NCBI GenBank assembly: GCA_963702895.1
Contig: OY969767.1
Location: 2,660,540-2,724,539, forward strand
Length of the DNA stretch: 64,000 nucleotides
Source: an uncultured Elusimicrobia bacterium
Lineage (GTDB): Bacteria > Elusimicrobiota > Elusimicrobia > 2-01-FULL-59-12
Reading direction: 5' to 3'
Part shown: positions 42,069 to 48,415 of the stretch, piece after piece
Position numbering within the stretch: position 1 is the first letter of the stretch
How the letters are laid out: each line of letters starts with the position of its first letter
Notes under the pieces: model-generated
The model's input: the letters and a program-made list of their open reading frames with translations, nothing else
Told to the model about the DNA's origin: nothing
Databases searched by the model: none
Program-made: the position numbers and the translations under genes

Positions 42069-42641
42069 TTACGGCTTGGGAAGGGGTTCCGGGGTGTGCG
42101 GCAAAGGAAGGTTGACCCGTTTCCCATTCTGTTTGACAATCCGTGCGGGCGTATCGACCACCGTGCAGTCCGGCGGGACGTCGTGCATAATGATGAACGA
42201 GTTGGCACCGATCCGGGTGTTGGAGCCGACCGTAATGGGGCCGAGCAAGACGCTGTTGGTGCCGATCAGGACGTTGTCTCCAACCGTGGGATGGCGTTTG
42301 CCTTCGTGTTTTCCGGTCCCCCCCAAGGTCACGTTGTGAAACATCACGCAGTTTTTTCCAACCTCCGCCGTTTCGCCGATCACGACGCCGACGCCATGGT
42401 CAATAAAAAACCCCTCTCCAATCCTGGCCGCCGGATGAATCTCAACCCCGGTGGCGACCTTCGCGAAAGTGGACAGCAGGCGCGGAAAGAGAGGGATCCT
42501 CAGCCGGTGCAGCAGGTGGGCGAGGCGGTAGACCACAATCGCGTGCAGCGGCGTATGGCACAGAAGCGTTTCAAGAAGGTGGTGAGCCGCGGGGTCATTC
42601 TCTTTGACGGCGCGAATGTCCTTCAAGATGGTTCTCAGCAT
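42069..42641 (-). CDS. cysE: Serine O-acetyltransferase
   Basis: DPAA, TGVEIHPAA, FIDHG.GVVIGET, GKRHPT. Confidence 0.95.
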   Translation of the reverse strand: MLRTILKDIRAVKENDPAAHHLLETLLCHTPLHAIVVYRLAHLLHRLRIPLFPRLLSTFAKVATGVEIHPAARIGEGFFIDHGVGVVIGETAEVGKNCVMFHNVTLGGTGKHEGKRHPTVGDNVLIGTNSVLLGPITVGSNTRIGANSFIIMHDVPPDCTVVDTPARIVKQNGKRVNLPLPHTPEPLPKP

Positions 42642-43176
42642 GTTCAACCCCCTCTTCCATTAACCGCTGCAGCAGTTGGAATCCTGTCGGCCAGTCTCGA
42701 AGAGCGCTCTCTGAATTCAAATGTCCCTTCGGGCCCAATGAAACAAACCGGCTTCCCCAGGCCCGGGCACAGCTTTGACTAAACGCCAGGTCTGCGTAGG
42801 GATCGTTCGAGCTGGCCGCAAGGATACTGGGAAATCCTAGCTTCTTCATCGGCACAGGCGCAAACCCCAGCGCTGTTTTCGGAAAAACCTGACTTGCCGG
42901 ATCGGGTGGCGCTACCAAAAGGGCGCTCCGCACCTTGAGACGGGTCTTCACCGCCCAATGAGCGACCTGCAAACAAGCCAGACTGTGCGCCACGAGAATC
43001 GCCCGAGGGCCCGCCTCGCGCACGGCGGCTTCGAGCGCTTCCACCCATTCCCGCCGTACGGGATGCTCCCAGTCCAGGTGTGAGATCCGGCGAAATTCCG
43101 GATGCGCCTTCTCCCAAAACGTCTGCCAGTGCTGCGGCCCCGAGTTGTTGATCCCGGGGAGTATCAGGACCGTCAC
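42595..43176 (-). CDS. RBBP9/YdeN family alpha/beta hydrolase
   Basis: PGINNSGPQHWQ, AHSLAC, SSNDPY, GHLN. Confidence 0.92.
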   Translation of the reverse strand: MTVLILPGINNSGPQHWQTFWEKAHPEFRRISHLDWEHPVRREWVEALEAAVREAGPRAILVAHSLACLQVAHWAVKTRLKVRSALLVAPPDPASQVFPKTALGFAPVPMKKLGFPSILAASSNDPYADLAFSQSCARAWGSRFVSLGPKGHLNSESALRDWPTGFQLLQRLMEEGVEHAENHLEGHSRRQRE

Positions 43177-43180
43177 CTTT

Positions 43181-44149
43181 TCAGATCGTGACAGGCGCGG
43201 GGGGTGCGGCCGTCACGGGCGGCGCGTCCTGGAACAGCCAGGTCGACAGGTAGCGCTCCCCTGTGTCGCAAAGAACGGTCACGATCGTCTTGCCGGCGGA
43301 TTCCGGACGTTTGGCAACTTCCAGCGCCACCCAGAGATTCGCCCCTCCCGAAATGCCGGTGAGGATCCCTTCCTCTTTGGCGAGGCGCCTGGCGATCGCG
43401 CCGGCGTCCTCATGCCTCACCTTGATGATCTCCTCATAGATCTTGGTGTTCAAGACCCCCGGCACAAACCCGGGGCCGATTCCCTGAATCTTGTGCGGAC
43501 CGGGTTGACCGCCGGAAAGGACGGGGGACTCGACGGGTTCCGCGGTGATGATCTTCACGGAGGGCTTGCGCTTCTTGAGCACTTCGCCGACCCCCGTGAT
43601 CGTGCCGCCCGTTCCGACCGCCGCGATGAAGATATCCACCTGGCCCTCCGTATCCTTCCAGATTTCCTCGGCTGTCGTCTTGCGATGGATTTCCGCGTTG
43701 GCGGGGTTGTTGAACTGCTGAAGGATCACGCTGCCGGGGATCCCTTTGGCAAGCTCCTCCGCCTTGGCCACGGCGCCTTTCATCCCTTTCGGTCCTTCGG
43801 TGAGCACGAGTTCGGCGCCCAGCACTTTGAGGATTTGCCGCCGTTCCAGGCTCATCGTTTCCGGCATGGTCAGAATCAGGCGATACCCCTTGGCCGCGGC
43901 GACAAAGGCGAGCGCGATCCCCGTGTTGCCGCTCGTAGGCTCCACGATCACCGATCCTTTTTTGAGCTGGCCGCTTTTCTCCGCAGCCTCGATCATGGAC
44001 GCCCCGATGCGGTCCTTCACGCTCGACAGGGGATTAAAAAACTCACACTTCGCGAGGACCGTGGCCTTCAAGCCTTCGGTCAACCGGTTGATGCGGACCA
44101 GAGGCGTATTTCCGATCGTTTGGGTGATATCGCTGTAGATTCTGCTCAT
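43181..44149 (-). CDS. cysK: Cysteine synthase A
   Basis: [40 protein letters not shown]. Confidence 0.96.
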
Positions 44150-44150
44150 C

Positions 44151-44753
44151 TTAGTCTCCTTTGGGTGAAACGACAAAGATCGCCGTTGAGGCAAAGAGAT
44201 TGGGCCAGAAGCGGACTTCGCTTCCAATCGAGAGATAGTGGCTCTCGTGGATCTCCAGGCCTTTCTCGGCGGCGTACTGTATAAAATCCTTGATGGTCAG
44301 AAACCGCAAATTGGGGGTGTCATACCAATGATAGGGAAGCGAGGGCGTCACCGGCGCTTTCCCGCCAAAAAAGAGCATCGCCCGGGCGCTCCAGGTCCCA
44401 AAATTCGGGACCCCGATGACAGCGCGCCGCCCCACGCGGAAAGCCTCACGCAAAATCAGATCGATATTTCGTGCTTCCTGCAGGCTCTGATTCAGCACCA
44501 CATAATCAAAAGAGTGATCGGGATAACCTTTGAGTCCTTCCTCGAGATTACTGTGCACAACGCTCAGGCCCTTGGCCACGCATTGATAAATGGACTGTTC
44601 GTTCAGTTCCACGCCCTGCACTTTGGCTTTTTTCTTGCGCTCCAGGAGCGCGAGGAGTTCCCCGTCCCCGCAGCCGAGGTCCAAGACCCGGGACTCCGCG
44701 GGAATCAAGCCGGCGATGACCTGATGATCAAGGCGAATGGCCTGGGGGTTCAT
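44151..44753 (-). CDS. metW: Methionine biosynthesis protein MetW
   Basis: [25 protein letters not shown]; downstream of metX. Confidence 0.93.
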
Positions 44754-45883
44754 CCGGCACCTCCCGTAGAGATTTCTTCAAAGGTCTTCCGCAAAAAGTG
44801 GCTGACCAGATGCGTCTGCTCATCGATCTCCAGCAGGAACGCGTCATGCCCGTAGGTCGAAGCGACCTCGCAATAGGTCGCGTCCACGTGCCGCGCGCGC
44901 AGGAGCTGCACGATGTCCTGAGATTGGTAGGAAGGATAGAGCCAGTCCGAGCCAAAAGCGATGACCAGAAAACGCGTGTCGACCCTTCTGCCGGGTGGAA
45001 TCAACTTGTCGCCCGATTGGTCGAAATAATCCATGGCTTTGGTGAGATACAGGTAGGAATTGGCGTCAAAGCGTTTGACGAAGTTGTCCCCCCGGTAGCG
45101 CAGATAGCCTTCCACCTCAAAATCCGCCGTGAAGCTGAACGTGAAGTCCTCATTCTTGAGTTTTCGTGAGAACTTCTCCTGCATGGATTGGTCGCTCATG
45201 TAGGTGATGTGACCGATCATGCGCGCCACCGCAAGGCCCTTCTCCGGCTGGCCGGTCGCGTAATACTGCCCGTTGTTCCAAGCCGGGTCGGCCATGATCG
45301 CCTGGCGTCCGACTTCGTCGAAGGCGATCTGTTGGGGCGTATGCTTGAGCGTGGTGGCGATGGGGATGGCGCTGGCGAGGCGCTCCGGATAGGAAGCGAC
45401 CCACTGCAAAGCCTGCATCCCTCCCATCGACCCTCCGGCTACGCAGAGGAGACGGTCGATGCCCAGATGATCGATCAGATGTCTTTGCGCTTCCACCATG
45501 TCCCGGATCGTGATGAAGGGGAAATCGAGCGCGTACGGCTTGCCCGTCGCCGGGTTCACCGAGGAGGGTCCCGTACTCCCTTTGCAGCCGCCCAGCGCAT
45601 TGGAGGCGATCACAAAATAGCGATGGGTGTCGAAGGCTTTGCCGGGGCCAATCATCTCATCCCACCAGCCCAGCGCGCCGCTGTCGGCATGGACGCCGGC
45701 GGCATGGGCGTCGCCGGAGAGCGCATGCAGGACCAGGATCGCGTTTGTGCGCCCGGCGTTGAGCTTCCCGTACGTTTCATAAGCCAGCGTCACCGGCCCC
45801 AGGGCCTGTCCTGATTCCAGGCGCAGGACGCTGGGGGGTGTGGCGAACGTGTAATGAAGCGTTTTAACGGAGCCCAAGCTCAT
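44750..45883 (-). CDS. metX: Homoserine O-acyltransferase
   Basis: [44 protein letters not shown]. Confidence 0.96.
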
Positions 45884-45885
45884 GT

Positions 45886-47211
<1,326 letters not shown>

Positions 47212-47251
47212 TCAATATACCACTCCGGGGCCGGGGTGGGTTTAGAGGCAA

Positions 47252-47279
47252 TAAAAAACCCATCCCGCGCGGGATGGGT
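47252..47279 (-). terminator. Attenuator terminator in the metY leader
   Basis: Minus strand ACCCATCCC-GCGC-GGGATGGGT followed by TTTTTAT, about 70 nt before the metY start. Confidence 0.88.
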
Positions 47280-47305
47280 GCTTTCGTTCGGTCGAAGTCT
47301 TTCGT

Positions 47306-47401
47306 TTACGCTGAAAGCCGACGCAGGGCACCCGTCCCGACCGCCATCATCGGGCACATGCACATACACATCGGGGCGCTGCTGAAGTTCGGCTGATTCA
47401 T
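47306..47401 (-). CDS. Met/Cys-rich leader peptide (31 aa)
   Basis: Hand translation MNQPNFSSAPMCMCMCPMMAVGTGALRRLSA*; lies between the promoter and the terminator. Confidence 0.8.
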   Translation of the reverse strand: MNQPNFSSAPMCMCMCPMMAVGTGALRRLSA

Positions 47402-47412
47402 AACGAGCGCAT

Positions 47413-47440
47413 ATCGTACGAATTTCAAAAAAGATGTCAA
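47413..47440 (-). promoter_or_regulatory. Sigma70 promoter of the leader-met/cys operon
   Basis: TTGACA (47440-47435), 16-nt spacer, TACGAT (47418-47413). Confidence 0.7.
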
Positions 47441-47692
47441 GAGGTTTTTTTAGAGCATCCATTTTAGTGGGAACGCCGGGAGTCCTCTCTTTTTGCGCTT
47501 GGCAGGGGATGGCGCTGACCAACCCCGAGCGCCAACACCGCTCTGGGTTTCTGATTTCGGGGCCCATTCGATGGCCTTCCCATAGGGGAGTCCGCTGGCA
47601 TGACGGCAAAGATATGTGTATTTTTCTTGTGCACTCCTTTATAATACCTCCGTTCCCCTGCAAGAAGAGCACCCATGGAAAAGGAATCCCCC

Positions 47693-48415
47693 ATGACAGA
47701 AAACGATCGCCTCTACGCGGAAGCGCGGCCAAGATCAGACGACTTCAATTTTGGCGCTTCAACCGCAGCCGTTTTCGATGATATGCTGACGCGTTCCGTG
47801 CCTTTTTACGACGAGATTCAGCGCATGATGGTGGAGATGGCGACCTCCTTCGCGGTCGAAAACACCCGCGTTTATGACCTCGGATGTTCCACGGGAACCA
47901 CCCTGGAAGCCCTGGCCCATGTGCTGCCCGGCAATGTTCATTTGGTGGGAATCGATTATTCCGCCGATATGCTCGAACGCGCGGCGCGTAAACTCAAGCC
48001 CTACCAGGATCGCGTGCAGCTCGTGCGCGGCGACTTGAATGAGGGGGTCGTCGTGGAAAACGCGTCGGTCGTATTGATGAATCTGACCCTGCAGTTTGTC
48101 CGGCCGCTCTACCGGGACAAGCTGATCGGCCAAATCTCCCGTGGGATGGTCAAGAACGGCTGCTTGCTTGTGGTGGAAAAAGTGTTGAGCAAGGACTCGA
48201 CCCTCAACCGTCTTTTTATCGAGTACTACTATGATTTTAAGAAGAAGAACGGCTACAGCCAAATGGAGATCAGCCAGAAGCGTGAAGCGCTCGAAAATGT
48301 ATTGATTCCCTATCGCGTTCAAGAAAACATGGAGTTGTTCCAGAACAATGGGTTTACCAGTTGCGAGATTTTCTTCAAGTGGTATAACTTCTGCGGCTTC
48401 CTTGCTCATGTCTGA
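47693..48415 (+). CDS. cmoA: Carboxy-S-adenosyl-L-methionine synthase
   Basis: VFDDMLTRSVPFY, YDLGCSTG, TLQFV, EISQKREALENV, WYNF. Confidence 0.9.
   Translation: MTENDRLYAEARPRSDDFNFGASTAAVFDDMLTRSVPFYDEIQRMMVEMATSFAVENTRVYDLGCSTGTTLEALAHVLPGNVHLVGIDYSADMLERAARKLKPYQDRVQLVRGDLNEGVVVENASVVLMNLTLQFVRPLYRDKLIGQISRGMVKNGCLLVVEKVLSKDSTLNRLFIEYYYDFKKKNGYSQMEISQKREALENVLIPYRVQENMELFQNNGFTSCEIFFKWYNFCGFLAHV

Follow-up and report, generated by a model that had tools for sequence, protein, structure and literature searches.

A predicted leader-peptide attenuator with interleaved methionine and cysteine codons ahead of a metY-to-cysE operon in an uncultured Elusimicrobia bacterium

The classical leader-peptide attenuators are the trpL, hisL, leuL, thrL, pheL and ilv leaders of Proteobacteria. 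To our knowledge, leader-peptide transcription attenuation for methionine (Met) and cysteine (Cys) is missing from the textbook list; the genes for these amino acids are known to be run by S-adenosylmethionine (SAM) riboswitches, T-boxes and proteins. Here we analyse a 64,000-nucleotide stretch (the window) of contig OY969767.1 (assembly GCA_963702895.1) from an uncultured Elusimicrobia bacterium, in which a short open reading frame (ORF) rich in Met and Cys codons and an intrinsic terminator precede metY and further methionine and cysteine genes. From the sequence, we propose that the leader ORF and terminator form a ribosome-mediated transcription attenuator, which would admit RNA polymerase to metY-metX-metW-cysK-cysE when a ribosome stalls for charged tRNA-Met/tRNA-Cys. 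We put the probability of this reading at about 0.75, and hold the further proposal that both amino acids are sensed with less confidence than that. The Met/Cys attenuator is apparently a real, and undescribed, variant of classical attenuation.

The closest published systems are described here as they appear in the passages of each source available to us. The ilvB1 leader of Mycobacterium tuberculosis is a leader-peptide attenuator (PMC13236596). Mycobacterial polycysteine leaderless small ORFs (sORFs) act on translation, with the Cys tract pairing with a downstream Shine-Dalgarno sequence and no intrinsic terminator (bioRxiv 10.1101/834739); Canestrari et al. state there that attenuation for cysteine mediated by an upstream ORF was previously undescribed (bioRxiv 10.1101/834739; cited in PMC13236596). 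Using comparative genomics, Seliverstov et al. (2005) predict Cys-codon leader peptides before cys/cbs operons of Actinobacteria (PMC1262725); in those passages no terminator hairpins are reported at the leaders, Rho is proposed, and no RNA regulation of methionine operons was found. The searched passages in the main text of a survey of premature terminators make no mention of a Met or Cys leader peptide (PMC2965389). Likewise, we found no description of a Met-codon or mixed Met/Cys leader peptide in the full-text literature searched, outside which most subscription journals lie.

The elements of the leader, in the order of transcription and with the source of each call, are as follows.

47435..47440, minus strand: -35 box TTGACA (promoter scan and sequence)
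47413..47418, minus strand: -10 box TACGAT, after a 16-nt spacer, its end 11 nt ahead of the leader ATG (promoter scan)
47306..47401, minus strand: 31-codon leader ORF MNQPNFSSAPMCMCMCPMMAVGTGALRRLSA with its ATG at 47401, a TAA stop (47308-47306) and no Shine-Dalgarno sequence (sequence and ORF list)
47372..47382, minus strand: segment 1 (GCAGCGCCCCG), the predicted partner of segment 2 in ribosome-free RNA, i.e. an anti-antiterminator (minimum-energy folds)
47345..47371, minus strand: control codons 11-19, MCMCMCPMM, with five Met (ATG), three Cys (TGT/TGC/TGC) and one Pro (sequence)
47336..47354, minus strand: small hairpin CCCGAU...GUCGGG within the 1:2 structure (minimum-energy fold)
47323..47339, minus strand: segment 2, with the predicted antiterminator strand CGGGACGGGUGC at 47339-47328 (sequence, duplex energy and constrained folds)
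47270..47281, minus strand: segment 3, GCACCCAUCCCG, the terminator 5' arm and partner of segment 2 (sequence and folds)
47253..47279, minus strand: intrinsic terminator with a 9-bp stem (6 G-C pairs), a 4-nt GCGC loop and a six-U tract (hairpin of -14.7 kcal/mol)

The sigma-70-like promoter (47440-47413) has 10 of 12 consensus matches and is the sole promoter-like site in 46800-47900 (0.5 expected). With its ATG so close to the -10 box and without a Shine-Dalgarno sequence, the leader RNA is predicted to be leaderless or nearly so. The ORF lies 125 nt upstream of metY and continues for 12 codons beyond the control run, and segment 2 therefore falls inside it. The terminator stem spans 47279-47258, with six T at 47258-47253. 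An initial annotation of this DNA, made from the letters, had named the promoter TTGACA-16-TACGAT, the 31-codon ORF with Met or Cys at eight of nine codons, an ATG 11 nt past the -10 box that lacks a Shine-Dalgarno sequence, and the GC hairpin with a U-tract after the ORF; each was found, on the minus strand and, for the codon cluster, at codons 11-19 and, for the hairpin, at 47279-47253.

To gauge how unusual this arrangement is, we scanned the genome sequence in six frames (2,724,539 bases; 5,449,074 codons). A stop-free run of nine codons with at least eight Met/Cys occurs once, compared with 0.0003 expected from the genome-wide Met+Cys frequency of 3.97%. A short ORF with at least four Met/Cys in six codons, followed by a hairpin and T-run within 140 nt, was found genome-wide at the leader locus alone. 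The same ORF-plus-terminator scan gave no matches for each of H, T, L, I/V, K, Y, N, Q, G, A, E and D runs, and a few for W, F, R, P and S runs.

The leader also contains mutually exclusive pairings. Eleven of 12 positions agree between the strand CGGGACGGGTGC (47339-47328) and the reverse complement of GCACCCATCCCG (47281-47270), a complementarity from which an antiterminator had first been suggested. The resulting 2:3 duplex (-19.3 kcal/mol) was equalled by none of 1000 dinucleotide shuffles, and the 1:2 duplex (-29.6 kcal/mol) by 63 of 1000. We then used co-transcription-style folds in which the RNA ends at the terminator 5' arm, the 3' arm not yet having been made, and the ribosome is a 27-nt footprint. 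The modelled probability that the 5' arm is paired upstream is 0.02 in free RNA, where segment 2 is held by segment 1; it rises to 0.81-0.87 with the footprint A site on any of codons 11-18 (seven of the eight control codons), and is 0.01 with the footprint on codon 19 and 0.48 with the footprint at the stop codon. These truncated, constrained folds agree with the proposed terminator/antiterminator switch, and the competing upstream CCCGAT/GTCGGG hairpin appears in the minimum-energy fold.

Downstream of the terminator lie the genes that would be controlled.

45886..47181, minus strand: metY, O-acetylhomoserine sulfhydrylase/homocysteine synthase, with its own AAAGGAG Shine-Dalgarno sequence (TIGR01326, 678.7 bits; NF006096, 719.3 bits)
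44750..45889, minus strand: metX, homoserine O-acetyltransferase (NF001209, 510 bits)
44151..44753, minus strand: metW (TIGR02081, 235.2 bits)
43181..44227, minus strand: cysK, cysteine synthase A, longest ORF (TIGR01139, 467 bits)
42595..43176, minus strand: serine hydrolase family protein (PF06821)
42069..42647, minus strand: cysE, serine O-acetyltransferase (TIGR01172, 211 bits)

NCBIfam and Pfam matches bear out the order metY-metX-metW-cysK-hydrolase-cysE first read from the translations; the genes share one strand and their ends overlap or abut. The true cysK start is probably near the ATG at 44149, because the TIGR01139 match begins at residue 34 of the longest ORF. An extended -10-like sequence, TGGTATATT, is present between the terminator and metY (47214-47222, minus strand), 32 nt upstream of the metY ATG. 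A second promoter, independent of the attenuator, may lie here; the promoter scan does not call the site, a -35 box being lacking.

From the observed anatomy, we infer the transcription start, the translation of the leader and its response as follows. The transcript would begin a few bases upstream of the ATG and, being nearly leaderless, would take up a ribosome close to its 5' end. When Met and Cys are plentiful, this ribosome would read on through segment 2 (47339-47328) as segments 3 and 4 are being transcribed; after ribosome release, segment 2 would re-pair with segment 1 (47382-47372), and with segment 2 held in this way the terminator would form and transcription would stop at the U-tract. 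If Met-tRNA or Cys-tRNA ran short, the ribosome would stall within codons 11-18, covering segment 1; the free segment 2 would then pair with the emerging terminator 5' arm (47281-47270), no terminator would form, and the operon would be transcribed. With the Met and Cys codons interleaved, a shortage of either sulfur amino acid would be signalled in OR fashion, a reading suggested because the operon makes both homocysteine/methionine (MetX, MetY, MetW) and cysteine (CysE, CysK).

The trp/his/thr-type layout recognised at the outset is indeed shared with the trp, his, leu, thr, phe and ilv leaders. Like the classical attenuators, the locus has a short leader ORF, a run of end-product codons and an intrinsic terminator, together with an alternative pairing that takes the terminator 5' arm and an upstream partner for the strand that does so. 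Unlike them, its control codons are Met and Cys, interleaved; its ORF has no Shine-Dalgarno sequence, starts 11 nt past the -10 box and runs 12 codons past the control run, enclosing segment 2; no Rfam leader family fits the window; and the host phylum is Elusimicrobiota.

With the mycobacterial polycysteine sORFs, as described in the passages above, it has in common a short ORF as first cistron (leaderless there, predicted to be nearly so here), Cys codons and sulfur/cysteine genes, and stalling relieves repression there, as is proposed here. It differs from them in having a strong terminator and U-tract ~70 nt before the metY Shine-Dalgarno sequence, and in that the Met/Cys codons alternate mid-ORF whereas the mycobacterial tracts are consecutive Cys codons at the ORF 3' end. 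A predicted fold spanning the leader and the metY start leaves the metY Shine-Dalgarno region free of pairing with the control tract. A translational attenuator of the mycobacterial type was rejected on these grounds: a terminator is present and the control tract is not predicted to mask the Shine-Dalgarno sequence. The Actinobacteria cys/cbs leaders, again as far as those passages describe them, similarly place a short ORF with Cys codons before cysteine genes, but the window has in addition a terminator and antiterminator, and Met codons dominate. SAM riboswitches and Met/Cys T-boxes serve the same genes (metY, metX, cysK, sulfur uptake) with the same output, premature termination; the sensor differs, the window leader having no aptamer or tRNA-binding fold (no Rfam match).

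We looked for the leader in related genomes. The family of the source genome has 11 genomes in the collection, and besides the window genome two of them (G006 and G007) carry a close metY. All three metY loci of these two genomes have a short ORF with a Met/Cys run and then a hairpin and T-run: the leader is MSTTIFSAKPSRMPMCMCCEGGTLCVCDRRML in G007, and MISQTISVSQMCCGMCMMCMCRETLRGL and MIGIRSAKQFFMPMCMCCCGAGTLCAYDR before the two metY copies of G006. The conservation upstream of metY for which the initial annotation had proposed a test is therefore seen in both other metY-bearing genomes of the family. It also extends more widely: four further genomes of the class have such leaders ahead of genes for sulfate uptake or of sulfonate type. 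G003 (same genus) has the leader MTHQNSAKSSMMAMCMCMQQGHGLLCGRRGDQVLAK and a terminator before an SsuA-like binding-protein fragment, for which the family match is weak because the contig covers just 71 residues; G010 has MNLALASTTPQSMCMCPRIVRDVVFCALA and a terminator before a Porin_O_P gene and sbp-cysT-cysW-cysA; and in G081 and G038 (another family) the genes that follow the leaders encode a sulfate-type binding protein and a Porin_O_P protein.

Two patterns were used in these searches. The 12-base pattern ATGTGYATGTGY gave 20 matches in the 11 family genomes versus one for the reversed control; 13 of the 18 non-window matches were dropped for longer frames or no terminator (one example being the conserved coding frame ..VDVYVPGCP..). 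Seven matches in six of 301 class genomes were obtained with a composite pattern of MCMC codons and, after 80-110 nt, GGGTTTTT; its reversed control gave none. The G081 and G038 loci came from this composite pattern. Starting instead from metY, the best 80 metY loci of the species-level genome collection included four with an ORF of at least 5/9 Met/Cys, namely G006 again, L120 (labelled Elusimicrobiota), L101 (labelled Omnitrophota) and L106 (labelled Porphyromonas). Leaders elsewhere amount to nine further loci: seven in six other genomes of the class and two on contigs found via metY (L120 and L101). In L101 the leader precedes DUF2292-metY; the 63-residue DUF2292 protein is encoded at L101:2755-2943 (+), between the terminator of the Met/Cys leader and metY. 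L106 (uncultured Porphyromonas sp. by label) has, ~170 nt upstream of a metY homologue with 50% identity, a Met-only leader ORF, MKATMYMMMMQMMSASAVVYPERS, and then a long hairpin.

A hairpin and T-run lie 3' of the leader ORF at all 10 genome loci, and Met codons are inside the run at all 10. Outside the Met/Cys run, the 10 peptides have no shared sequence, and the nucleotide sequences and predicted folds also differ. By contrast, the loci preserve a frame with its start and stop, and the Met/Cys codons; within the run, TGT and TGC replace each other synonymously and P or G is inserted in frame. The attenuator reading draws on the following findings: in the window, a leader ORF after a promoter, a cluster of end-product codons, a terminator and a mutually exclusive antiterminator; and in relatives, control codons that are kept where the rest of the leader has diverged. 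The suggestion that the leader is nearly leaderless is also supported: in four of the eight loci scanned by rule, 7-11 nt separate the end of the -10 box from the leader ATG (11 nt in the window, 7-9 nt in three relatives), and inspection by eye gives a distance of 9-12 nt in the two loci of the other family. For the antiterminator, the 2:3 energy was reached per 1000 shuffles by 0 (L001), 2 (L186), 3 (L208), 9 (L002), 24 (L196) and 33 (L209); the pairing is well supported in these six of the 10 loci, and in the other four is indistinguishable from composition effects.

Of 60 further regions upstream of metY or its paralogs, sampled across the phylum, none has the layout of the window, and just L141 (weakly), L177 and L180 pass the 5/9 filter. 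ORFs without a Met/Cys run in L005, L032, L033, L039, L040 and L042, listed by a first filter (at least four Met/Cys anywhere, ORF of at most 80 aa), were set aside. In another family of the phylum (L177, L180, L170, L178 and L179), a small ORF ending ..(S/C)WRMCLFC.. stands ~50 nt before a metY paralog (~57% identical), with a conserved box, CATAGTATTTTGATAGGAA, upstream of the small ORF and no terminator seen; this may be a different Cys/Met-related upstream ORF, or a protein-binding site. With the metY query used here, no close metY was found in eight of the 10 other family genomes (G001, G002, G003, G004, G005, G008, G009 and G010; completeness 73-98%). The metY gene is, however, 80-88% identical across several families and in contigs labelled as other phyla. 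Since a close copy is missing from most of the family yet present elsewhere at this identity, patchy inheritance or transfer of the operon is suggested.

We also scanned metagenomes with the composite pattern, which gave at least 120 stretches, 80 of which were analysed. The loci were not de-replicated, and several leaders are identical on different contigs. Among the matches listed, 83 in number, 52 (50 loci) pass a leader-plus-terminator filter that asks for a frame no longer than 90 codons, a stop codon ahead of the hairpin, and a T-run adjoining a hairpin at least as stable as -9 kcal/mol. The leader peptides are of several unrelated types, e.g. ..AMCMCTCCCCACVCAGAGRLPT, ..MMCMCYYTGRGGLFM and ..TPAMCMCSCHGC... 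A first downstream ORF is present at 46 of the 50 loci. Again among the matches listed, these ORFs encode PF01053 Cys/Met-metabolism enzymes dependent on pyridoxal phosphate (PLP) (15/46), sulfite/nitrite reductase (10/46), MetX-like alpha/beta hydrolases (2/46), PF03601 (2/46), DUF3034 (2/46) and an aminotransferase (1/46), or have no Pfam match (14/46, some apparently picked in the wrong frame of a sulfite reductase gene). The sulfur-related classes (Cys/Met PLP, sulfite reductase and MetX-like) thus account for 27/46. The pattern specifies only MCMC codons and a T-run and does not set the identity of the downstream gene, which therefore gives independent support for the link to sulfur assimilation.

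Some metagenome leader types can be matched to particular genes. On contigs L216, L220, L233, L236, L238, L266, L271, L277, L285 and L287, sulfite/nitrite reductase genes directly follow the type ..AMCMC(T/S/A)CCCCACVC(A/S)GAGRL(P/L)T and its strong terminator. The types ..MMCMCYYTGRGGLFM and ..TPAMCMCSCHGC.. stand before metY, metX-like and PF03601 genes.

Several observations weigh against an attenuator. The leader ORF lacks a Shine-Dalgarno sequence, and its ATG probably lies not at the RNA 5' end but 2-6 nt inside it. Met shortage also limits the charging of initiator tRNA and hence translation of a leader, an effect that would be expected to apply here. Equilibrium folds with the complete terminator keep the terminator in every ribosome state (P at least 0.75); any switch would therefore have to be kinetic, as in classical systems. 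The folding energy of the leader as a whole does not stand out from that of shuffles (z = -0.94). In the window the 1:2 pairing is just moderately rare among shuffles, it is not above shuffles in five of 10 loci, and the 2:3 pairing is not above shuffles in four of 10 (L120, L004, L101 and L031, with 101, 407, 500 and 568 per 1000, respectively). By geometry, a ribosome parked at the stop codon leaves segment 2 uncovered (P of 0.48, as above), and several relatives pair the 5' arm already in ribosome-free truncated RNA. Finally, several relatives were found by patterns demanding MCMC, so that conservation of the run is partly built in there; the metY-based finds and the tallies of downstream genes are unaffected by this demand.

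A variant of the proposal, which we consider unlikely, is that the attenuator senses just one amino acid, most probably cysteine, the other codons being passengers or having another role. The Met:Cys ratio is indeed variable: 5:3 in the window, Cys-dominant in many metagenome leaders (..AMCMCTCCCCACVC..) and Met-only in L106. The published sulfur-amino-acid leaders that we located are Cys-codon ones only, in the passages available (PMC1262725; bioRxiv 10.1101/834739), and sulfate-uptake operons, which mainly serve cysteine synthesis, bear the same kind of leader. However, five of the eight control codons in the window are Met and three of the first four genes are methionine genes; Met codons are in the run at 10 of 10 genome loci, though the pattern searches required MCMC; and the stall positions predicted to free the antiterminator include both Met and Cys codons.

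It is distinctly improbable that the terminator is controlled by a metabolite-binding fold, an RNA-binding protein or a small RNA, with the ORF incidental. Met/Cys genes are usually under riboswitches, T-boxes or proteins (according to the passages seen of PMC1262725), the repeated AUGUGY forms a U/G-rich tract that is a possible protein target, and a structured RNA is found at the same genes in sister families (see below). Yet a search of 46800-47800 against Rfam 15 with E up to 10 returned chance-level matches only (Ms_AS-1, mir-181 and sraL), the best having an E of 0.66 and 18.3 bits versus a 37-bit cut-off. At the gathering score there were no matches in the whole 64-kb window, nor on the loci of 25 relatives. 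The SAM-I (RF00162) and T-box (RF00230) models matched nowhere in the genome and did match control genomes; the SAM-II (RF00521) genome search carries no weight, since the control genomes were silent too. No SAM, T-box or other Rfam family therefore accounts for the leader region, and the Rfam check that the initial annotation had proposed came out in its favour. In addition, nucleotides and folds differ between loci whilst frame, start, stop and Met/Cys codons are kept, and the whole-leader fold is not more stable than shuffles, both of which weigh against this alternative.

The two remaining explanations have very little to recommend them. TnaC arrest responds to tryptophan, and by analogy a nascent arrest peptide could stall the ribosome on a free small molecule (e.g. 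Met or SAM); a short ORF with a terminator is compatible with this and the conserved ..WRMCLFC.. small ORF before the metY paralog in another family of the phylum might be such a peptide, but beyond the Met/Cys run the 10 genome-locus peptides share no conserved sequence, and the logic is wrong, in that ligand-induced stalling would turn a biosynthetic operon on when its product is abundant. The ORF might equally be a functional small Met/Cys-rich peptide (metal- or redox-active) that shares the transcript, the hairpin being an ordinary partial terminator; Met/Cys-rich motifs bind soft metals and annotation often misses small proteins, as is generally known, but peptide length and sequence are not conserved, the ORF is always between promoter and terminator directly ahead of sulfur-assimilation genes, and its internal segment 2 is complementary to the terminator arm. 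We therefore retain ribosome-mediated attenuation as the reading of this locus.

In sister families, metY is preceded by a highly conserved structured RNA that is unrelated to the Met/Cys leader. Its core is CGGCGAGGCUUUAAU..CCAACUUGCCCCGGCCG, a variable hairpin and AACAGGGnGCUAAAGCGGU, often followed by a terminator, and it is sometimes in tandem. Copies include L006:1308-1380 (+), L005:1276-1349, L033:1277-1359, L034:1338-1414 and L037:2878-2950 (-), among others. Twelve aligned copies have 34 invariant columns, and the variable hairpin shows compensatory changes. The motif has no Rfam match; a covariance model built on it finds it in 31 of 150 class genomes, with up to six copies per genome, and not in the genome of the window. 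Inspection of 24 matches placed nine before metY, six before Porin_O_P, one or two before sulfate-type binding proteins and one before a DsrE-like gene. In L005, L034, L036 and L040, a further conserved element, GGCGAGG..GGGGCCACGCC, is found just upstream. The motif resembles a riboswitch for a sulfur-related ligand and would be an undescribed candidate of that kind. The same gene set carries either the RNA motif or the Met/Cys leader, by lineage, an alternation that would be expected for two interchangeable sensors of sulfur status.

We lean, at somewhat better than even odds, towards a broader interpretation in which mixed Met/Cys leaders with terminators are a widespread undescribed class of attenuator for a sulfur-assimilation regulon (metY/metX, cysK/cysE, sulfite reductase, sulfate/sulfonate uptake) across several phyla, the first to read methionyl-tRNA, often leaderless, and swapped with a riboswitch-like RNA. 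If true, the gap in the textbook list would be closed by a terminator-based attenuator responding to Met and Cys codons, and attenuation would prove workable with a codon that is also used for initiation. Such an attenuator would also provide a sequence signature with which to annotate sulfur-assimilation operons in uncultured phyla. The swap between the leader and a conserved RNA at the same genes in sister families represents a natural experiment on the replacement of one cis-regulator by another.

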